A DNA stretch of 43,791 nucleotides from IMG/VR virus record IMGVR_UViG_648861009_000009; one strand, written 5' to 3'. Positions 2,794-31,891 of the stretch are shown piece after piece. Below the pieces are notes generated by a model. That model worked only from the letters and a program-made list of their open reading frames with translations. It did no database searches and was not told the origin of the DNA. Numbering within the stretch: the stretch's first letter is position 1; the number at the start of each line of letters is the position of its first letter. The translations under genes and the position numbers were made by a program. Origin of the DNA: a virus. Taxonomy: Duplodnaviria > Heunggongvirae > Uroviricota > Caudoviricetes.

Positions 2794-4930
2794 GAAACTT
2801 CCCCATTGGTTGAAAATATGGCTCCTCCAACTCCAAGTGTATTTCGTGTTGTGCTCAACCTAAGAGGGCTGGAGTCAGAATTAGAATATCCTGTAGCAGA
2901 AATAAAAGATCCTCCACTAATAGTCAACTGCGGAACATCGGCTATATCTGAATAAGTTCTGTCAGCAACAGTATTATTTATAGCCACATGTGATCCAAAA
3001 AAACTTCTTATTGTTTGGTTTTTAACTTTACTTCCTTCAATGGTTATCCTACTACCACAGTCAGCAATAAATCCTGAATCTGCATCCAGCGTTGCATTCA
3101 TAAAAGAAGCTTCAGATCTCTCTACATCAATCCATCTAATATCTTTTGTGGGATTTGCACCAAATACATGACAAATATTAGAGTTAAACCTTACACCATC
3201 TTGGAGGTGCATTAATTTTTTTATATCTGTACCCCATAGCCTTGGAAAATTAACAGATGCTCCTGCATGGCAATCAAATCCCAACTCAGCCCCTGAGATA
3301 TCTACAGCCTTTCCTGAAATAACAGCACCAGTGTCTGCATTAACGGCTGTTCCACAATTGCGCATATCATTACCAGCAATATCAACACAACTCGCACCAT
3401 CAATACGCACACCAAGTGCACATCCATAAAAACCTTTTTCAATATTTGGTTCAAGGACTTTACCACTTGTTTCTGCATCACTTTCTTCAACGTCATGTCG
3501 TCTTGCATCAACATATGCTGTATGAATGCAGGTTAATCCACGATATGAGCAATGTATAGTTTTATGGTCGCGTATATTAACATTTNNNNNNNNNNNNNNN
3601 NNNNNNNNNNNNNNNNNNNNNNNNNNNNNNNNNNNNNNNNNNNNNNNNNNNNNNNNNNNNNNNNNNNNNAACCATCTCTTACATTCCATCCTATATAACA
3701 ATAGCTTGCACTTGACCCCTGAAAATCTGCTTTAACATTATAAATACAATTAACTGACGCAACCGTACTCTCTGTGCACCGTTCAAACTTGCTTACAGGC
3801 ATTGATGCCTTGACATTATTTACCAGTTGCAGGGAAGAGTATCTGCTATAAGAAAAATCACATACGTAATACCCTTCTGGCATATATGCAGCAACACTTT
3901 CCTCATCAGGAGCACATCCGGTATGATATGCACTAATTTTTGCACCAAAGCTACCATGAATTCCAACGTAGAACTTTCGAGCACCTGAATACGGATAGAA
4001 ATTAAGTTCAGCTTTTTGAGTTACAATAAATGCACAAACATCGCTATCATCTCTATTTTCTTCAATCTGAATAGCAAATACAGGACTTTTTGCTGCATCG
4101 CAAATGTAAAATAAATATTTGTATTCGTAATACGTCCTAACAGTTTTAGTAAACAAACTGGTATCAGAGAAAACCACTGAGTCTTCTGATATTATTTTAA
4201 TCCATGATAAGTCACATCCTGCTGAAATTTCTATTTGCTCATTGAGCACAAAACCGGAAAGAATTTTAATTATGCAAAAGTCAATGCCATTTTTCCATAG
4301 TGGACGCAGTGCAACAGCCGAGTTTAGAGCATCACTAATAGATTTAAAATTACCATATTCCCCAACTGTTATTGTGAATGCATACCTGGAATTAAATACT
4401 GCGGCACTCTCTCCAGAGTTAATAGCTGCAGATATCATGTCATAATTTGATATAAAATCATTTGGCGTGATTATTTCTGCGTTTTTATTGTGCTGTGTTC
4501 TAAGTTTTGAATTTACATGAACACTTTTAACTGCAATACGGGAGTCGTCAACAAGTATTTCATTACCCTCTGTTGCTAACTCTTGTCTTAACTGATCCGG
4601 GTCATACTTCAGCACATTCGGAAAATTGAACTGCTGTGCACCATACGCATCATAAACAGCCATAGAATGGCCTTGCTCAGTTACGAATTTGGCAATCTGT
4701 CCGTTATATACAGGGTAACCAGCAGCGTTAATGATGATTGGTTGCGATACAGGAACGTGAGAACCGTCTTCATTCTCCACATAAACCTGAATCTGGTTTT
4801 CAGGATTTACAGGGTCAGTGTCAATTTTTCCGATATAAATTTTGCCATTGGCAACCGCTTTAAAAGAACGTGCCATAGTGAAGAGTTGCGAAGGCATCGA
4901 TACGATCACATTGGCTGTAATGTCTGTCAT
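2790..4930 (-). CDS. Tailspike protein, P22 gp9-type N-terminal head-binding domain plus distinct receptor-binding domain; interrupted by assembly gap
   Basis: N-terminus [43 protein letters not shown] matches P22 tailspike; ORF spans N-run 3586-3669. Confidence 0.85.
3586..3669. other. Assembly gap (84 N) inside tailspike gene
   Basis: Run of N. Confidence 0.95.
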
Positions 4931-24771: not shown

Positions 24772-24800
24772 AAAAAGCCCCGAGCTATTAACTCAGGGCT
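24772..24800 (-). terminator. tR'-like terminator ~40-60 nt downstream of pR'
   Basis: Minus-strand AGCCCTGAG-TTAATAG-CTCGGGGCT followed by TTTTT. Confidence 0.7.
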
Positions 24801-24835
24801 TTATTTAACGAGTGCATTTATCCATCGTTGAGTCA

Positions 24836-24864
24836 AATTTACCCAACTTTATTCAAAAAGTCAA
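24836..24864 (-). promoter_or_regulatory. Late promoter pR' (Q target, qut region)
   Basis: Minus-strand TTGACT-17 bp-TAAATT then TGACTCAACGATGG as in lambda pR'. Confidence 0.75.
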
Positions 24865-24906: not shown

Positions 24907-25530
24907 CTAACGTGTGACCGCATTCAAAATGTTGTCTGCGATTGACTCTTCTTTGTGGCATTGCACCACCAGAGCGTCATACAGCGGCTTAACAGTGCGT
25001 GACCAGGTGGGTTGAGTAAGGTTTGGGATTAGCATCGTTACAGCGCGATATGCGGCGCTTGCTGGCATTCTTGAATAGCCGACACCTTTGCATCTTCCGC
25101 ACTCTTTCTCAACAACTCTCCCCCACTGCTCCGTTTTGGCTATATCAACCGCCCGACCTGTACCGTGGCAATCTCTGCATCTTGCGCCCGGCGTCGCGGC
25201 ACTACGGCAATAATCCGCATAAGCGAATGTTGCGAGCACTTGCAGTACCTTTGCCTTAGTATTTCCTTCAAGCTTTGCCACACCACGGTATTTCCCCGAT
25301 ACCTTGTGTGCAAATTGCATCAGATAGTTGATAGCCTTTTGTTTGTCGTTCTGGCTGAGTTCGTGCTTACCGCAGAATGCAGCCATACCGAATCCGGCTT
25401 GTGATTGCGCCATCCCCATAGCAGCCATCACATCAGTACCGGAAAGAGAGTCAGAAGCCGTGGCCCGTGGTGAGTCGCTCATCATCGGGCTTTTTGGCGA
25501 GTGAAATTTAGCTACGCTTTCGAGTCTCAT
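24907..25530 (-). CDS. Q: Late antiterminator Q (lambda type)
   Basis: 207 aa; matches remembered lambda Q including Cys-rich zinc-binding region. Confidence 0.92.
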   Translation of the reverse strand: MRLESVAKFHSPKSPMMSDSPRATASDSLSGTDVMAAMGMAQSQAGFGMAAFCGKHELSQNDKQKAINYLMQFAHKVSGKYRGVAKLEGNTKAKVLQVLATFAYADYCRSAATPGARCRDCHGTGRAVDIAKTEQWGRVVEKECGRCKGVGYSRMPASAAYRAVTMLIPNLTQPTWSRTVKPLYDALVVQCHKEESIADNILNAVTR

Positions 25531-25715
25531 GGTCTTCCCCTCTTGCCCTGTTTGACCATCAGGACGCCGTTAACTATTACGTGACGCTCGCCTTTGCTGT
25601 CTCGGTTGTACTTGAGCACTGTTCCTCTTGCGCAGGAAAGCATCCTCGCCACTTCGGTCTGATTGCCTCGTGTCTGGATAAGAAGCTCTGGTATCGTTTG
25701 AATTATGGCGTTCAT
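25527..25715 (-). CDS. ninH: NinH
   Basis: 62 aa; GNQTEVARMLSCARGTVLKY...HVIVNGVLMV matches lambda NinH. Confidence 0.8.
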   Translation of the reverse strand: MNAIIQTIPELLIQTRGNQTEVARMLSCARGTVLKYNRDSKGERHVIVNGVLMVKQGKRGRP

Positions 25716-26074
25716 GCGTTCTCCAGTTCGGTTATTTTTATTCCAAGCCTTCCGCCTGGTACTTTCACGCCACGAATTACGCGAATGTCATCGAATTGCT
25801 CGTCGTCTTCCGCAAATCCAGCGTGGATAAGGGAGTCGAGTAAACCTTTCAGGATGTTGTCGAGGTCGCGGCGGCGGGAGTCTGGAACGTCTGCGATGAC
25901 TTTGATACGGAGTCGTGATTTGGTGAAAATGTCTAACTTGAGTTGGCGGATGATTTTCTGAACGTCTTTTCTGTATTTCTGGCCTTTATCGCTAATGTAA
26001 TATTGGCTTCCTCGTCTTCGCCAGTAGGTATTCACCGACGGTGGGTATGGAAGCACAAACTGATATTCGTTCAT
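25712..26074 (-). CDS. rusA: Holliday junction resolvase RusA
   Basis: 120 aa; RRRDLDNILKGLLDSLIHAGF and GGRLGIKITELE match RusA. Confidence 0.85.
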   Translation of the reverse strand: MNEYQFVLPYPPSVNTYWRRRGSQYYISDKGQKYRKDVQKIIRQLKLDIFTKSRLRIKVIADVPDSRRRDLDNILKGLLDSLIHAGFAEDDEQFDDIRVIRGVKVPGGRLGIKITELENA

Positions 26075-26361
26075 GACTTAATCTTCCCCTCCTTCAGCAG
26101 TATCGCCTGCGTCCTGATCACGCCTTCGAGGTGGTAAAGTCTGGCGTCTTTGTTGTCGAGGTTATGGGTGCGTCGGTCGATTTCATCGTGACACGCGCTA
26201 CAAGCCCATGCTCCGATCAGGTCGTCAGGTTTCATTCCCGTTCCGCAAATTCCAGCCATCCGGTAATGTGCCAGAACTGTAGTTTCAGGATTACCATTGC
26301 ATACGCCGTAAATACGTACCTGGCATTCTCTTCCGCGCGCTTCTTTGCGTAGGTTAGCCAT
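26071..26361 (-). CDS. YbcO-like (DUF1364) protein
   Basis: 96 aa; ARGRECQVRIYGVCNGNPETTVLAHYR...CSACHDEIDRRTH. Confidence 0.7.
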   Translation of the reverse strand: MANLRKEARGRECQVRIYGVCNGNPETTVLAHYRMAGICGTGMKPDDLIGAWACSACHDEIDRRTHNLDNKDARLYHLEGVIRTQAILLKEGKIKS

Positions 26362-26566
26362 TTACCTTCCCTCGCAATTGAAGAATTGACTGAAGGTCTT
26401 TTTTAATAAATATGCGAGTGCGAATTGAGCAGTAGTTTTCCTTCATTCTGGCGTAGTAATAGTCCTTTCGTTGTTTAAGCTTGTTGGCATCCGCTGTCAT
26501 CCAGTCTTTTACAGCAAACTTAATTAACCAGCGGTGGCAGAGATACCATTTCAGGTAATCATTCAT
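26354..26566 (-). CDS. Hypothetical protein
   Basis: 70-aa ORF in nin region. Confidence 0.4.
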   Translation of the reverse strand: MNDYLKWYLCHRWLIKFAVKDWMTADANKLKQRKDYYYARMKENYCSIRTRIFIKKDLQSILQLRGKVNG

Positions 26567-26735
26567 CGTCTTCTTCCTCGTACATTGAGCTATTCGGATC
26601 GCTCATCAGTTCTGCGCAGCAGTGCTCACACACGTGAACTTCCAGCACATGCAGCTTCTGGCCGCAGTTAGCGCACGTTAAAGCTCGCTCGACGCTTTCT
26701 TTCTGGTATTGAAGGGATTGGGATGGGCTAAGCAT
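26559..26735 (-). CDS. ninF: NinF
   Basis: Internal start gives [46 protein letters not shown] matching lambda NinF. Confidence 0.7.
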   Translation of the reverse strand: MLSPSQSLQYQKESVERALTCANCGQKLHVLEVHVCEHCCAELMSDPNSSMYEEEDDE

Positions 26736-27135
26736 GGCTTTCACCATTAAAAAGTCGCTTGTAAGCATCAATGTCTCGTTTTGCTTCACCAAGCTTTCGT
26801 CTTAATTCCATGTTTTCTGATTCAAGCTTTTCCATGTCTTGTTGGTATCGATCGCGGTGTTCTTTCCATGCTTTTTGATACGCCTTCATGTATGTCATGT
26901 TGGCCTTTCTCTTTGCCTGACGAACTGCGTGGTGGTTTTTCACAAACCAGTCAGGGTCGTTAAATGCTGCTCTGGCGCATGTATACCAATAATTTGTTGC
27001 CTCCCTGTTTAGCCAATAAATACTGATAAATGGCAACCGGATAGACACCATTTTTCGTTGTGACTCTTTCTCGCCAAACATGTGGCCTTTTTTGATGCTA
27101 AGTCCAAATCCAGGTTGAATTAAAAGCATTGTCAT
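26728..27135 (-). CDS. Hypothetical protein with C-terminal coiled coil (inserted between ninE and ninF)
   Basis: ORF 26728-27171; ATG at 27135 overlaps ninE stop (ATGA). Confidence 0.45.
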
Positions 27136-27308
27136 TTCCTCGCGCGATGTCTTAGCCACCGGATATCCCACAGGTGAGCCGTGTAGTTGAAGGTTTTTAC
27201 GTCAGATTCTTTTGGGATTGGCTTGCGTTTATTTCTGGAGAGTTTCGTTGGAAGGTATTTGCAGTTTTCGCAGATGATGTCGGTGATACTTCGTCGCTGT
27301 CGCCTCAT
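27132..27308 (-). CDS. ninE: NinE
   Basis: Internal start gives [22 protein letters not shown]...[14 protein letters not shown] matching lambda NinE. Confidence 0.75.
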
Positions 27309-28309
27309 GCCGCCCTCCTGACGCCCTGCCCGATCGCCATCAATGCCGCTTTGGATACGGTAGTAAACATCCGTCGAGGACTGATGAACGGTCGCCAAAT
27401 CAGCAGCATGGAGCCTTTGCTGTTTCCCTTCTTCTCTAGCCCCGTCGATGGTTCGATAAAATTAATCCGTCCATCAGTGATAATACGAACTTCGTCAACA
27501 CTCTCCAGAGCCTTGCTGAACCATCCGACTGACATATCCTCTGGCACAAGCATAACTACCGTCTGTCGCTGTTGTATGCACTGCTCAGCGGCTTTTTCCA
27601 CCCACGGCCTGATATTGCTGTACGGTGGGTTATTCCAGATTGCACCGTGGCTTACCCACTCAGAATTGAGCGCGTCGTCGGCCTCAGTTAGCCAGTGAGC
27701 GCACAGAGCATTTTTGNNNNNNNNNNNNNNNNNNNNNNNNNNNNNNNNNNNNNNNNNNNNNNNNNNNNNNNNNNNNNNNNNNNNNNNNNNNNNNNNNNNN
27801 NNNNNNNNNNNNNNNNNNNNNNNNNNNNNNNNNNNNNNNNNNNNNNNNNNNNNNNNNNNNNNNNNNNNNNNNNNNNNNNNNNNNNNNNNNNNNNNNNNNN
27901 NNNNNNNNNNNNNNNNNNNNNNNNNNNNNNNNNNNNNNNNNNNNNNNNNNNNNNNNNNNNNNNNNNNNNNNNNNNNNNNNNNNNAGCCTTGCTGAACCAT
28001 CCGACTGACATTATCCTCTGGCACAAGCATAACTACCGTCTGTCGCTGTTGTATGCACTGCTCAGCGGCTTTTTCCACCCACGGCCTGATATTGCTGTAC
28101 GGTGGGTTATTCCAGATTGCACCGTGGCTTACCCACTCAGAATTGAGCGCGTCGTCGGCCTCAGTTAGCCAGTGAGCGCACAGAGCATTTTTGTCGCTCG
28201 CTGCCGAATCCAGCCAGAATCCAAACTCAATATCCAGTGCATCAAAAAGCCAAAGCGGCGTTTGCCAGCAGTCCTTGTCGTGTGCTGGCGTATTTGATTT
28301 GATAGTCAT
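27305..28309 (-). CDS. Phage N6-adenine DNA methyltransferase (Dam-like), reading frame spans assembly gap and duplicated flank
   Basis: [19 protein letters not shown]...AIWNNPPYS (NPPY motif IV); gap 27717-27984; true gene probably ~180 codons. Confidence 0.7.
27717..27984. other. Assembly gap (268 N) flanked by ~200-bp duplicated sequence
   Basis: 27510-27716 repeats at 27985-28190 with a 1-nt indel. Confidence 0.9.
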
Positions 28310-28752
28310 GCAGCCTTCCCTTTTCGTTGTGACCATTCATACTCTCGCCGGGAGTCATCACTCCACCGCACGTTGCGCTCTGAGCCGAACCAGAACATGA
28401 TTTCGATAAGCTCAGTCATGCTGGCCTTTCGCATTTTGCTGGTACGCACGCCAAGCATAACAACGCCACCGTCGATACCAGGCGCACTTCGTTGCTCCAG
28501 TTTTTTGGTCTTAAGCCACAGGGCAGTGAACAGATCTTTCCAGTCCTCCGGCGCAAGTCTCTCTCCATGCCAGAGCACCTGACGCGATACGTCCTGCAAT
28601 AACGCCCACATAAGGCGGTTTTGAGGATTGCTCCGCTTTGGTTCTTTAATGTGGACTTCGTGAGGTGACTTGTCGTCGATCGGAAGTGAGAGTATTGCGT
28701 CTATGGCGTTGTTTCTGATTGCTTCGTTGCGAAGCATGTATATTTGCTTCAT
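28306..28752 (-). CDS. ninB: NinB (recombination mediator)
   Basis: SNPQNRLMWALLQDVSRQVLWHGERLAPEDWKDLFTA and C-terminal WS...EW match lambda NinB; start at MKQIYML. Confidence 0.8.
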   Translation of the reverse strand: MKQIYMLRNEAIRNNAIDAILSLPIDDKSPHEVHIKEPKRSNPQNRLMWALLQDVSRQVLWHGERLAPEDWKDLFTALWLKTKKLEQRSAPGIDGGVVMLGVRTSKMRKASMTELIEIMFWFGSERNVRWSDDSRREYEWSQRKGKAA

Positions 28753-28759
28753 CGTTACC

Positions 28760-28966
28760 TCAACTAACAAAACGCCACGCCATTTTTGCTACAGCGACAG
28801 GCATAACACCGATAATCACCCAGACAAATGCAGCGCCAAACAACGTATACCATGGGTCTTTACCGTCATTCACAAGACGAATGTAGCTATGCAGAACAAT
28901 AAATAACGTCAGAAGAATCCATCCAACGCCAACGCATTTGAATGCGACGAGCATAAACTCAGCCAC
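28760..28966 (-). CDS. Small membrane protein (ren position)
   Basis: 68-aa hydrophobic ORF between replication gene and ninB. Confidence 0.4.
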   Translation of the reverse strand: MAEFMLVAFKCVGVGWILLTLFIVLHSYIRLVNDGKDPWYTLFGAAFVWVIIGVMPVAVAKMAWRFVS

Positions 28967-28983: not shown

Positions 28984-29013
28984 ATAAAAAGGCCTGCGAT
29001 TACCAGCAGGCCT
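28984..29013 (-). terminator. Rho-independent terminator after replication gene
   Basis: Minus-strand AGGCCTGC-loop-GCAGGCCT then TTTTTAT. Confidence 0.6.
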
Positions 29014-29042: not shown

Positions 29043-30923
29043 TTAATACTCCGTCACGTTTTCCTGTCGCCACGCCTCGTCATATTCCGATTTCGGCATA
29101 TTGGCGATGTAGCTATATGGCGATCCTGATTCAAGTTGCAGGAACTGGTGCGATTGCTCGTCAAGGAACAACGGGACGCCACCTTCCCAACCTTCGCCGT
29201 TACGTTGTTTTTCAAGCATCAAAACAGATGCCGGAGACGCCAGTACCTGTTCGTCCTTCTCTGACATCTTTTCACCACTCTGAACTCTCTGTAACGCTCT
29301 CTCGCGAGCCTTGTTACGCCAGATGATGAAAAGGTTGTCTGTCAGGTCTGTTATCGCTCCAGAGCCTTTTACGTCCATTTTCCCGGTTGGTTTTTCTTCG
29401 CTGTCTCCTTTTCGCGAGTGAGTAACGAGAATGACGTGGGAGTTTGTTTTGTTTTTGAAGTCGCAAATCGAGTCAACAAACGCCTTCTGCCCGTTATAGT
29501 CATCGTCGCCTATGCCACATTTCATCAGGCTGTCGATGATGAATAACTGGATCCCGTATCGGCGGCGAGCGTAGTCGAATATTTCGATCAGCCTGTCGGC
29601 TTTCGCCGTTCCGGTCAGGCCAAACACCCAAAGTCTTTCGTCATAAAATTTAAATGCAGAGTCAATTTCCAGCACTGGCGGCATCTTGCAGCACGTCGCC
29701 TGACGGGTAAGGCGCTTAAGGAGAATACCAGGCTTCAGCTCAAGTGACGCGATGCACGTCTTCACACCCTGACGCATTGCCTCAAGTGCCATATGCCCGA
29801 CAACCTCCGTTTTTCCGTGACCGTTCACACCATTGACCAGCGTCAACTCGGCCTCACGGAACTGGAATTTATCTGCCAGAGATTCCCACGGTGGATTAAA
29901 CAGATACTGCTGCTTGCCGTAGAAAGCGTTGATAGTGTCCTGGTAAAACTCTCGCGCGCTGTAGAGTTCTTCAGGATCGAAGTAGGATGCCGTGCCGATG
30001 TACTGCCAGATTTCATCCTCGGTAACACCGTTCATCAGGCATTCGTTGATGTCTTTGTACGGCAGAGTAACAAGACGGCAACGATGTTCACCGAGTCGGC
30101 TTGCGATTTCCCTTGCGGCCTCACGACCAACATCATCAACGTCCATCGAGATGAATATTTCCTCAAACCTGTCGAGGTTGTGATACTCAAACTCAATCCA
30201 CTGTTGCTTAGCACCTTTCCCGCCACCAAACGGCACGGATAACGCCGAGATGCCGTATTGCGCATAGCTCATACAATCAATTTCGCCTTCGCAAAGTACA
30301 ACCGCCCTCACGCCAGCGTCCAGAGCCTGCCATCCGAACAGACAAGGTTCGCAATCACCTTCTGCCATAATGACTTTCTTCCCGTCCGGGCGCTCAGTGC
30401 TGATTCGCTTGACCTGCAACAACTCACCATCGCGTTTGTACGGAAGCACCAGTGCATCAAGTTCTCGTTCTCCATTCCACACCTTGCCGCTGACAACCTC
30501 GTAGCGCTTTACGACTTCTGGCGATATGCCACGCGATTGCAGGTACTCAAGATGGGATTCTGTTCTGGTAACGTAGCGGGCGATTTTCTTGCGGTCAGGT
30601 CTGGAGAATTTCTTCTCACGTCTGGCATCGAAATGGTGATCGTCATCCTTGATACCGAGAAATGCTTTCGCTTCCTGCATAGCCTGATGCAGGTTAATTC
30701 CACGACATGCCATCCACAAATCAAGCATGTCACCGCCGTCTCCCTCAGCGAAATCAGCCCATTTTTTCTTGCCGCTAAGGTTGACCTTAAGGCTGTTTCC
30801 CTTGTCACCGTTGACGTTACCGGCAACCCACTCATGCCCCTCTTTCTTGCCGTTTGGCAACAGGTGCGGAGCCACCCTGTCAACCTGCGCCCAAAGCAGG
30901 TCGCTAAGTTCACTTGGCGTCAT
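29043..30923 (-). CDS. Primase-helicase (toprim primase N-domain + DnaB-like helicase C-domain)
   Basis: 626 aa; Walker A NGVNGHGKT; occupies P/helicase slot downstream of O-like gene. Confidence 0.75.
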   Translation of the reverse strand: MTPSELSDLLWAQVDRVAPHLLPNGKKEGHEWVAGNVNGDKGNSLKVNLSGKKKWADFAEGDGGDMLDLWMACRGINLHQAMQEAKAFLGIKDDDHHFDARREKKFSRPDRKKIARYVTRTESHLEYLQSRGISPEVVKRYEVVSGKVWNGERELDALVLPYKRDGELLQVKRISTERPDGKKVIMAEGDCEPCLFGWQALDAGVRAVVLCEGEIDCMSYAQYGISALSVPFGGGKGAKQQWIEFEYHNLDRFEEIFISMDVDDVGREAAREIASRLGEHRCRLVTLPYKDINECLMNGVTEDEIWQYIGTASYFDPEELYSAREFYQDTINAFYGKQQYLFNPPWESLADKFQFREAELTLVNGVNGHGKTEVVGHMALEAMRQGVKTCIASLELKPGILLKRLTRQATCCKMPPVLEIDSAFKFYDERLWVFGLTGTAKADRLIEIFDYARRRYGIQLFIIDSLMKCGIGDDDYNGQKAFVDSICDFKNKTNSHVILVTHSRKGDSEEKPTGKMDVKGSGAITDLTDNLFIIWRNKARERALQRVQSGEKMSEKDEQVLASPASVLMLEKQRNGEGWEGGVPLFLDEQSHQFLQLESGSPYSYIANMPKSEYDEAWRQENVTEY

Positions 30924-31030
30924 GATTCCCTCAGATTGAGATTTTTAAACCAGAAATCGACAAACGAAATACTTAACCAGCCGTGGTTATAACCAGCGAC
31001 TAGTAGCGATTTGATTTTTGATTTCATGGT

Positions 31031-31891
31031 TCACCTGTCGAAAAACACGTAGCCAGTTTTCGATACGGTGATTGCGGATGATGGTTTGGATTGTGGTTGA
31101 ATGGTTTCTGGCTTTTCGTCGTTCCAGCGTTGACCGTTCAGGTAGCTCGATGGTAACAACCTGTCGAATCCGAACTGCTTACCATTCCTGCATGCGATGT
31201 CTTCTGCCAACATCGTGGCAAACTCGCTTGCCGTACCCCTGGTAGTTTTACGCCATTCCCTGAACTGTGTTCTAAATGCCGAAGCTGCGTTTTTTTTCCC
31301 GGCTTTCCGCATGCCTGCACACCAGAATATTTCCTCGAATGCCTTGTCGGTTTCTTCGTGACGGTCAGGTGATTTTTCACACTCCGTCCGAACACTTTCG
31401 GACATAGTGTTTTTATTATTTCTTTTTTCTTTTGTAATAGTTTCTTTTGTGTGTCCCTGTTTTGGTGACAGCGCTGTCACCGTTTTGGTGACACTTTTTG
31501 TCACCAATGCAGTGACATTATCACCAGAGTAGTGACACCCTTCGATTTGCCATTCCTCGATGTTCTTGTTAGGCCCGATTTGCTGGCCTTCGCGAAGGAT
31601 AACCTTCATCGCGATAAGCTCATTCTTGGCCTTGTTTACCTTCTGTCTTGGCAGCCTGGTAATTTGAGCTAACTGACTATCAGAGATGCGATCCATCTTT
31701 TTACCGTAGCCGTATGTTTTACGGCATATGGCGTGGGCAACCTTGCTCTGATTTTTCGTTAAATCTGCGCCGATAAGCTCTTCATACAGGGCATTTGCAA
31801 GACGGGTATAACCATCTTCAACTTCTGCCACACGACGCTCCACAGGCCGTTGTGAAGGCCTTAAATGTGTTACGGTTGCAAGATTACTCAT
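31031..31891 (-). CDS. Replication initiator, lambda O-like N-terminal domain
   Basis: 286 aa; [53 protein letters not shown] resembles lambda O; iterons inside. Confidence 0.8.
31405..31540. repeat. Origin of replication: iteron-like repeats with adjacent AT-rich tract
   Basis: GGTGACAGCGCTGTCACC, GGTGACACTTTTTGTCACC, AGTGACATTATCACC, AGTGACACCC at ~20-24-bp period; AT-rich 31405-31450; inside O-like gene. Confidence 0.6.

Follow-up and report, generated by a model that had tools for sequence, protein, structure and literature searches.

A catalogued nin-region layout in a tailed-phage genome, with a scaffold gap inside its Dam methyltransferase gene

The virus record IMGVR_UViG_648861009_000009, a stretch of 43,791 nucleotides that was analysed as a whole and is referred to below as the window, contains a block of small genes that occupies the place of the lambda nin region but does not follow the lambda gene order. 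The first-pass annotation described this block as a nin region remodelled with an inserted coiled-coil protein, a YbcO-like protein and a Dam-like methyltransferase. The question is then whether the layout is unusual, what its genes encode, and why its methyltransferase gene looks odd.

Gene order and its counterparts in other phages

The gene order and the positions of the ORFs given in that annotation were borne out, with all of the ORFs on the minus strand. Read along this strand, the order is NinB, Dam, NinE, a protein of 133 or 135 aa (orf133), NinF, a 70-aa protein (orf70), YbcO, RusA, NinH and Q. Upstream of the block are a Phage_rep_O gene (31891-31031), a Toprim/DnaB-like gene (30923-29043) and orf68 (28760..28966, minus strand), which lies directly upstream of NinB and encodes a small hydrophobic protein of phrog_1165, a family without an assigned function; downstream of Q are holin, endolysin and Rz genes. 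This location, between replication genes and Q, is that of ninR.

The named genes of the block are all supported by Pfam, PHROG and NCBIfam, and NinB, Dam, NinE, NinF, YbcO, RusA and NinH exceed the curated cut-offs of Pfam. For the Nin proteins, the gathering cut-off is exceeded by NinB, the Orf recombination mediator (28306..28752, minus strand, 148 aa; PF05772, E=1.5e-48; phrog_72), NinE (27132..27308, minus strand, 58 aa; PF05322, E=6.7e-43), NinF (26559..26735, minus strand, 58 aa; PF05810, E=1.8e-12, with four cysteines in the matched stretch; phrog_672) and NinH (25527..25715, minus strand, 62 aa; PF06322, E=1.1e-23). The RusA Holliday-junction resolvase (25712..26074, minus strand, 120 aa) matches PF05866 over residues 9-114 (E=1.2e-16) and phrog_34 (E=5.4e-54). 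YbcO, or DUF1364 (26071..26361, minus strand, 96 aa), matches PF07102 over nearly its full length (2-91 of 92, E=1.8e-44) and is a predicted His-Me finger nuclease, a fold class taken from the structure PDB 3g27 (PMC5714182). The last gene of the operon (24907..25530, minus strand, 207 aa) is a Q-type late antiterminator, annotated as an antitermination protein in the Escherichia coli GPEC1240 locus described below. The Dam-like, YbcO-like and RusA assignments of the earlier annotation were right, as was its statement that the order differs from that of lambda.

The locus of E. coli GPEC1240 (NZ_CM142783.1, 3484459-3486675) is 99.3% identical to the window at the nucleotide level over 2217 nt, from NinH to distal Dam, and the full order NinB-Dam-NinE-133 aa-NinF-70 aa-DUF1364-RusA-NinH-Q is annotated there. 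It differs from the window in its replication module, which is of the lambda O/P/Ren type, whereas the window has O plus a primase-helicase module. When the segment from NinH to distal Dam was used as the query, 2254 of the 5426 complete E. coli genomes had some match, and in 67 genomes at least 80% of the query was covered in one place.

The backbone of the layout is also known from individual phages. In HK97, which is 95.7% identical where it aligns, the backbone NinB-Dam-NinE-NinF-[slot]-YbcO-RusA-NinH-Q is published; as in the window, the methyltransferase HK97p49 lies between NinB and NinE, and YbcO and RusA replace NinG/Rap. Unlike the window, HK97 has nothing between NinE and NinF, and the variable slot between NinF and YbcO contains Roi (anti-repressor-like, 241 aa) instead of orf70. 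Phage ECP1 (NC_049926) shares with the window the order of Dam, YbcO, RusA, NinH and Q, but has in the NinF-YbcO slot a different, 89-aa ORF that has no Pfam match. In VT2-Sakai, orf32 lies between NinB and NinE like the Dam gene of the window, but the region continues with Ant, Roi and NinG/Rap rather than with orf133, NinF, orf70, YbcO and RusA. The lambda ninR (ren, ninA-ninH, orf221, Q) is found in the same place between the replication genes and Q (PMC8022706, PMC10695390, PMC4118853) and has NinB, NinE, NinF, NinH and ATGA-type packing in common with the window; however, lambda has ninC/ninD in the place of Dam and NinG/Rap in the place of orf70, YbcO and RusA, and its orf221 (NinI phosphatase) is absent from the window. 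That RusA and Rap/NinG alternate and that nin genes are shuffled has been described (PMC4118853).

The words "remodelled" and "inserted" were thus too strong, since the backbone is the published HK97 arrangement and the ten-gene order is annotated in GPEC1240: the layout is a usual, already catalogued nin block. We regard it as very probable that the interval belongs to an E. coli prophage of the P22 type (HK620/Sf6-like) and that it is ninR, at the distal end of the early-right (PR) operon, in an HK97/Stx-phage mosaic variant. Nothing in the analysis contradicts its reading as an ordinary nin region.

The genes of the block are tightly packed. Five of its ten junctions are 4-nt ATGA overlaps and three are 8-nt overlaps; for example, the Dam ATG overlaps the NinB stop codon in an ATGA, NinE is coupled to Dam in the same manner, and NinF overlaps the 3' end of orf133 by 8 nt. 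Nin regions in general show ATGA coupling and tight packing (PMC8022706). A consensus scan gave as candidate signals a terminator-like GC hairpin with a T-run in the gap between the primase-helicase gene and orf68 (28990..29013, minus strand) and, downstream of Q (24774..24864, minus strand), a PR'-like promoter (24864-24836) with a terminator-like hairpin (24802-24774). Within 25500-28900 the scan gave no terminator-like sites except for a weak 5-bp match at 28474. The hairpin at 28990..29013 has the same position as lambda tR2 upstream of nin.

From the tR2-like terminator to Q, the ten genes would be coupled in translation through their 4-nt ATGA or 8-nt overlaps, and their expression would be that of delayed-early genes, starting when antitermination sets in. 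The block would supply dispensable DNA-metabolism functions: NinB/Orf would load recombinases onto SSB-coated ssDNA, the predicted YbcO nuclease and the RusA resolvase would stand in for lambda Rap/NinG, NinH would bind DNA, and Q would turn on the late genes. In lambda, the nin genes are dispensable (PMC10695390).

The Dam gene: assembly gap and proposed role

The Dam ORF of the window (28309-27305) has 334 codons, 90 of which are translated as X. Its odd look is explained by an assembly gap that runs through the gene: a run of 268 N (27717..27984) separates the 5' part of the gene at the end of the upstream contig (27985..28309, minus strand) from the 3' part (27305..27716, minus strand). 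The flanks of this run, 27509-27716 (208 nt) and 27985-28193 (209 nt), are direct copies of each other except for one indel; they are overlapping contig ends that were left unmerged. The indel is an extra A in the upstream copy near 28011, about 26 nt from the contig end, and it shifts the frame of the last ~26 nt. When the flanks are merged, the Dam gene becomes 528 nt long and encodes 175 aa; in this form it can be aligned to GPEC1240 with no gap, while an alignment of the upstream copy requires one. In the window itself the Dam frame is interrupted, and only merging makes it intact. The length of 334 codons, 90 of them X, is an artefact of an assembly that left the overlap of two contigs unmerged around the scaffold gap. 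Since the gap with its overlapping ends lies inside it, the ORF is not to be taken for a long or fused protein. The first-pass annotation named the family correctly but missed this gap.

The window does hold two copies of ~208 nt with 268 undetermined bases between them, as would be expected of a real tandem duplication or of an insertion that disrupts the methyltransferase gene. This is very improbable, however: both copies stop exactly at the run of N, which is the mark left when a scaffolder joins contigs with overlapping ends, and the sole difference between them is the additional A, 26 nt away from the end of the contig. Moreover, there is one intact 528-nt gene in all of the close relatives sampled, namely ECP1, HK97, VT2-Sakai and GPEC1240, the last of which has no gap at this position.

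The merged 175-aa protein matches PF05869 with E=6.4e-65 (218.4 bits against a cut-off of 28.1) and the equivalog TIGR01712 with 265.9 bits against a cut-off of 97.05. Direct reading of the sequence gives NPPY at residues 68-71 as the catalytic (D/N)PPY motif, and the protein is identical to VT2-Sakai orf32 (NP_050531.1) at 175 of 175 residues. The phage Dam-like proteins listed in PMC7556043 include VT-2 dam, for which Radlinska and Bujnicki 2001 is cited. Judged by its sequence, the protein is a phage-type N6-adenine methyltransferase, already cloned and published as VT-2 dam. The VT-2 Dam cloned by Radlinska and Bujnicki in 2001 was reportedly GATC-specific.

As to the role of the enzyme, host Dam leaves the virion DNA of lambda and P22 under-methylated (PMC3299994, PMC8022706), and the phage enzyme would top up GATC methylation on fast-replicating DNA that host Dam leaves in this state. 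An anti-restriction role is plausible and a reasonable reading. A stronger version holds that Dam is primarily anti-restriction, full GATC methylation of the progeny DNA guarding against MboI/DpnII-type enzymes in the next host; we consider this a serious possibility, but not the favoured one. Under-methylation of virion DNA by host Dam speaks for it, as does the company of the gene: a PF05869 Dam gene in Yersinia phage PY54 is two genes away from a Lar-like restriction-alleviation gene, and a Lar-like gene lies just upstream of NinB-Dam in VT2-Sakai. In addition, PADLOC classes Dam with orphan methyltransferases, and DefenseFinder-type annotation scores phage methyltransferases as anti-RM in EHEC phages (PMC12502783). 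On the other hand, with E. coli hosts that are Dam+ to begin with, the protection gained would be partial; GATC methylation exposes DNA to methyl-dependent enzymes of the DpnI type; the GATC sites of this phage are already depleted to 0.47 of expectation, which lowers the stake; and this Dam family is not known from experiment to affect how efficiently phages plate on hosts that restrict. Published work on GATC counterselection is said to propose the avoidance of MutH cutting as another role, which also counts against a primarily anti-restriction function. Yet another role that has been proposed is lysogeny stability (PMC3342100).

Two other connections of the nin Dam were considered and rejected. 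The prophage "16S rRNA methyltransferase" (PMC10810198) is the MT-A70 protein gp5: its family is a different one, and its gene, which in phiPA8 lies near position 3,300 of the genome, is at another locus than the nin Dam. Similarly, PhiOS31_p25 and phiP27 L24 are reported to be relaxed in their specificity, but this does not carry over, because phiP27 L24 is an unrelated 352-aa methyltransferase that gives a BLASTP E value of 0.15 with the nin Dam and has the PPY motif alone in common with it.

orf133 and orf70 in the variable slots

Profile searches assigned the 133-aa and 70-aa proteins to the existing PHROG families phrog_1511 and phrog_3973, to which no function has been assigned. Both matches are full-length: orf133 (26728..27129, minus strand) aligns over 1-133 of 133 with E=1.6e-86, and orf70 (26354..26566, minus strand) over 1-70 of 70 with E=4.1e-52. 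Neither protein matched a Pfam or NCBIfam family, and PADLOC and NCBIfam scans of orf133, orf70 and orf68 were without a meaningful match. Of the supposed insertions, Dam is already published, while the 133-aa and 70-aa proteins match no named Nin protein. The named protein that was specifically excluded is P22 NinX (PF10765, 117 aa), which is similar in size to orf133 and occupies the slot directly upstream of NinF in P22-like phages, such as 683R2. No relationship to it is detectable: orf133 does not match PF10765 at E<0.01, and when its family profile was compared with 683R2 NinX by hhalign, the probability was 0.1%.

The start codon of orf133 is likely to be the second ATG (27129), which gives a protein of 133 aa, rather than the ATG at 27135, which gives 135 aa. 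An AGGA is found 7 nt upstream of the second ATG, the homologues all begin with MLLIQ or MILIQ, and the RefSeq annotation is of 133 aa. The ATGA that had been described as coupling NinE to the 135-aa ORF is present in the sequence (27135-27132), but because of the likely start at 27129 the junction is really TGA-CA-ATG.

The family of orf133 is narrow and phage-restricted, with 59 representatives, and 39 of 39 distant relatives match phrog_1511 as well. The 133-aa protein is found at 100% identity in ECP1 and in VT1-Sakai and Stx1-converting phages, and at 46% identity in PY54; NinE flanks it in ECP1 and in a Stx1-converting phage, and in ECP1 so does NinF. A conserved two-gene module of orf133 and a NinF-like zinc ribbon was rejected on the basis of PY54, in which ORF54, downstream of the orf133 homologue, lacks cysteines and does not match NinF. 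Two single-protein scans of IMG/VR for the context of distant family members found none.

That orf133, orf70 or both are chance ORFs rather than genes is scarcely conceivable. It is true that neither has a Pfam or NCBIfam family, that the predicted structure of orf70 is one long helix of low to modest confidence, and that the substitutions in orf70 (3 synonymous and 3 nonsynonymous) are too few for a robust dN/dS. However, besides the full-length PHROG matches, the homologues of orf133 are of constant length even where identity falls to 20-46%, and those of orf70, at 61-64% identity, stay at 70-71 aa. Both genes are tightly coupled to their neighbours through frame-compatible overlaps and both are annotated in RefSeq. 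For orf133, the dN/dS against Salmonella SI8 is 0.12, calculated from 60 substitutions, and the gene is under purifying selection. orf133 and orf70 are genuine accessory genes, both of them conserved, and each lies in a known variable slot, the former between NinE and NinF and the latter between NinF and YbcO.

Architecture and candidate function of orf133

The coiled coil that had been noticed in the 135-aa ORF is supported by an AF2 model (pLDDT 77.9), in which residues 67-127 form one continuous C-terminal helix, and by a family-wide 4-3 heptad pattern: in 39 sequences, residues 88-127 have hydrophobic positions at 88, 92, 95, 99, 102, 106, 109, 113, 116, 120, 123 and 127. The layout of the protein is a small beta-rich N-terminal domain, a conserved FNDPDW motif, a basic helix and a heptad coiled coil of ~40 residues. 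The basic patch covers residues 70-82 across 39 family members, and the net charge over residues 65-85 is +3.7. A ribbon-helix-helix at residues 28-75 was considered and rejected, as AF2 gives a four-stranded sheet followed by helices. Comparison of the model with PDB and BFVD gave no significant fold match beyond its own family (no Foldseek match at E<0.67).

Because a conserved basic helix is followed by a clean heptad zipper, our best guess, a tentative one, is that orf133 is a dimeric nucleic-acid-binding protein. The eukaryotic bZIP factors GCN4 and Pap1 likewise have a basic helix that runs straight into a heptad, leucine-zipper-like coiled coil, but this is an analogy only: orf133 has a further ~15 residues separating the basic patch from the clean heptads, as well as an additional beta-rich N-terminal domain, and no Pfam bZIP or other DNA-binding model matched it. 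In a search of PDB sequences with its profile, the matches were of the coiled-coil type only, and those to the Pap1 and GCN4 bZIPs (E 0.027-0.19) do not amount to significant homology and possibly reflect coiled-coil composition.

An alternative, which we think unlikely, is that orf133 is a protein-binding host-takeover or anti-defence factor whose coiled coil serves as an oligomerisation or decoy module. A narrow, phage-restricted family without a DNA-binding domain match would suit such a factor, as would its place in a variable accessory slot that is filled by the unrelated NinX in other phages and, in PY54, its proximity to Lar-like and Dam genes. Nevertheless, among the PADLOC models LmuB alone gave a match, which was non-significant and of the coiled-coil type, and a conserved basic patch directly N-terminal to a zipper is more typical of nucleic-acid binding.

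As a discovery, the locus carries little weight: public records of phages and of E. coli already contain its layout, Dam, RusA, YbcO and both hypothetical proteins at 97-100% identity. What gives phrog_1511 interest is that the family is conserved, under purifying selection and carried by medically relevant Stx1/Stx2 phages, and that its basic-helix-plus-zipper architecture offers a hypothesis that is cheap to test. It is conceivable, though improbable, that phrog_1511 represents a class of dimeric, bZIP-like phage proteins that bind DNA or RNA and had gone unrecognised, perhaps acting alongside Dam/Lar-type restriction-evasion genes. If so, the protein might, for example, target or regulate methylation, or block a host nuclease on phage DNA, and this would explain its recurrence beside PF05869 Dam genes in Stx phages, in Tbat2_3 and in Yersinia PY54.

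Gene content and predicted transcription of the nin region

The interval 26354-28309 lies on the minus strand of a prophage whose virion genes are 96-97% identical to those of HK620, Sf6 and other Lederbergvirus (P22-type) phages. The window also encodes an integrase, a P22-type antirepressor, a CI-like repressor, a Phage_rep_O protein and a fused Toprim/DnaB-like primase-helicase. On the nin side of the replication genes, the minus strand carries in order orf68 (28966-28760), NinB (28752-28306), the DNA adenine methyltransferase gene Dam (start 28309), NinE (27308-27132), orf133 (27129 or 27135 to 26728), NinF (26735-26559), orf70 (26566-26354), YbcO (26361-26071), RusA (26074-25712), NinH (25715-25527) and Q (25530-24907), followed by holin, endolysin and Rz. 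NinB, Dam (PF05869), NinE, NinF, YbcO (PF07102), RusA and NinH are matched by Pfam above the curated cut-offs, PHROGs agrees, and NCBIfam also identifies Dam; therefore, the gene calls and gene order of the first-pass annotation are correct. YbcO (DUF1364) is classified as a His-Me finger domain, for which a structure (3g27) has been solved, and it typically neighbours RusA and Q (PMC5714182). The first ORF, orf68 (phrog_1165, listed with a GTG start), encodes a small, very hydrophobic protein with no match in Pfam, NCBIfam or PADLOC.

The junctions comprise five 4-nt ATGA overlaps, three 8-nt overlaps and two short gaps. Such ATGA packing is general in nin regions, and rusA is present in the P22-like phage L (PMC8022706). 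A consensus scan, which registers pattern matches only, detected a strong terminator-like hairpin (29013-28990, minus strand) between the primase-helicase gene and orf68, the same position as that of lambda tR2, and a promoter-like site with a terminator-like hairpin directly downstream of Q (24864-24774, minus strand), which match the PR'/tR' arrangement. The same scan found no comparable promoter or terminator signal inside the nin block. The block may be transcribed in one piece as a delayed-early unit, dependent on antitermination.

The methyltransferase gene and GATC sites

Of the two N-runs in the window, one (268 N, 27717-27984) falls within the Dam ORF and had been overlooked. The flanks of this run, 27509-27716 on the left (208 nt) and 27985-28193 on the right (209 nt), are the same sequence, the single difference being an additional A some 26 nt from the gap's right-hand edge, and both copies end exactly at the N-run. 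This exact stop is the trace of a scaffolder that left overlapping contig ends unmerged. Merging the flanks yields a 528-nt gene with a gap-free alignment, at 98.7% identity, to the prophage of E. coli GPEC1240; the upstream copy by itself aligns only with one gap. The merged product has 175 aa, with NPPY at residues 68-71, and is identical at 175/175 residues to orf32 of VT2-Sakai. Judged from the sequence, the 334-codon ORF with 90 X residues is an artefact, and there appears to be no fused or duplicated methyltransferase. The other run (84 N, 3586-3669) breaks the minus-strand tailspike gene and, unlike the Dam gap, has flanks that are not duplicated; the PF09008 head-binding domain of the tailspike starts at 4930, and the receptor-binding part of the gene has a low GC content (35-37%).

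The Dam protein matches NCBIfam TIGR01712, 'phage N-6-adenine-methyltransferase', at the equivalog level, is identical in several Stx1- and Stx2-converting phages, and has homologues in 1908 phage records. It has already been cloned and published as the VT-2 gene, for which a 2001 paper reportedly described GATC specificity. In PMC7556043, VT-2 dam is listed as a cloned gene among phage Dam-like proteins, whose role is, according to that paper, still not well understood. Two other identifications were ruled out: the 'prophage rRNA methyltransferase' of PMC10810198 is encoded at a different locus and is of the MT-A70 type, and the enzymes of relaxed specificity to which phiP27 L24 is related belong to an unrelated 352-aa family.

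In lambda and P22 virion DNA, GATC is only partly methylated, as the host enzyme cannot keep pace with replication (PMC3299994; PMC8022706). A phage Dam expressed during replication would close this gap left by a Dam+ host; the benefit could lie in protection against GATC-cutting restriction enzymes, as the first-pass annotation proposed, in avoidance of MutH, or in regulation. In the window, GATC occurs 93 times against 198.5 expected (0.47 of the Markov expectation); among 4-nt palindromes only CTAG is more strongly depleted, despite the phage's own Dam-family methyltransferase. This depletion fits long-standing selection against unmethylated GATC, and is equally compatible with each of the proposed roles.

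The two small proteins orf133 and orf70

The ORF between NinE and NinF, orf133, matches phrog_1511 end to end, with no Pfam or NCBIfam match and no meaningful PADLOC match. The ATGA previously taken to couple it to NinE is present (27135-27132), but the likely start is the second ATG, at 27129, which has AGGA 7 nt upstream; all homologues start MLLIQ or MILIQ, and RefSeq annotates 133 aa. The product thus most likely has 133 aa and starts 2 nt past the NinE stop. VT1-Sakai, Stx1-converting phages and ECP1 carry it at 100% identity; identity is 82-87% for the copies of Salmonella P22-like phages, 69% for that of Tbat2_3 and 46% for that of Yersinia phage PY54. Among 1.84 billion representatives, an exhaustive profile search yielded only 59 related proteins, the distant ones being of equal length, at 20-30% identity, and all within phrog_1511.

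A dN/dS of 0.12 against the copy in Salmonella phage SI8 (60 substitutions) marks orf133 as a real gene. Nucleotide identity between 26728-27129 and SI8 (1507-1908 in its record) falls from 94.4% in the first 180 nt to 77.5% in the remainder, and the amino-acid differences all lie beyond residue 62. This unevenness suggests a recombination joint within the gene, where the N-terminal domain meets the basic helix and coiled coil.

The AlphaFold model (pLDDT 77.9) contains four short strands (residues 2-40), helices at 42-57 and 59-65, and a long helix at 67-127. When 39 members are aligned, W61 proves almost invariant, a basic patch is conserved at residues 70-82 (net charge +3.7 across 65-85), and the hydrophobic positions 88, 92, 95, 99, 102, 106, 109, 113, 116, 120, 123 and 127 keep a clean 4-3 heptad register; the (F/L)xDPDW motif around W61 is invariant among close relatives only. 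This architecture, a basic helix leading into a zipper, makes a dimeric nucleic-acid-binding accessory protein our best, though tentative, guess. Sequence matches in the PDB are weak and only to coiled coils, including the bZIPs Pap1 and GCN4 (E 0.027-0.19), and a Foldseek search with the model found no significant PDB match, only family members in BFVD. The main alternative, a protein-binding host-takeover or anti-defence factor, draws mild support from PY54, where a Lar-like gene and a PF05869 Dam lie on either side of the homologue. In that phage (2567-4257 in its record), genes of these kinds are arranged differently around the homologue ORF53, with the Lar-like restriction-alleviation protein (PF14354) on one side and one small ORF separating it from Dam on the other. 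NinX was ruled out by direct comparison, and no conserved downstream partner was found across the homologue loci compared.

The 70-aa protein orf70 matches phrog_3973 over its entire length; only 7 phage records and 18 protein clusters contain it, and its length is maintained in homologues down to 61% identity. Its predicted structure is a single helix of modest confidence, and its substitutions are too few for a meaningful selection test.

Layout of the nin region among relatives

The region does differ from that of lambda, and two of its proteins lack an assignment, but the layout first described as remodelled is a standard, already annotated variant. When a 2217-nt query, from NinH to the distal part of Dam, was compared with 5426 complete E. 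coli genomes, 2254 gave some match and 67 covered at least 80% of the query in one place. The prophage of GPEC1240, matched at 100% coverage and 99.3% identity, has the whole NinB-to-Q order annotated exactly as in the window. The backbone is shared with HK97 (NinB-Dam-NinE-NinF-Roi-YbcO-RusA-NinH-Q) and with ECP1, in which the 133-aa gene likewise separates NinE from NinF; VT2-Sakai has NinB-Dam-NinE, then Ant, Roi and NinG.

The replication module of the window (29043-31891) consists of Phage_rep_O and the fused Toprim/DnaB-like protein of 626 aa. Unlike in the window, the near-identical nin block of GPEC1240 is joined to lambda-type O/P/Ren, and those of HK97 and ECP1 to a DnaB-type helicase; therefore, a mosaic joint lies just upstream of NinB.

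The nin genes of lambda are dispensable (PMC10695390), and shuffling of nin genes is described, in which the small ninD/E/F genes keep their synteny and either rap or rusA lies downstream of orf (PMC4118853). The slot between NinE and NinF is empty in lambda and HK97, and is occupied by NinX (PF10765) in the P22-like 683R2 and by phrog_1511 in the window; that between NinF and YbcO holds Roi in HK97, an 89-aa ORF in ECP1 and phrog_3973 in the window. The arrangement in the window is already known and is not unusual: as far as these gene orders indicate, the nin region is a fixed backbone with two variable slots.
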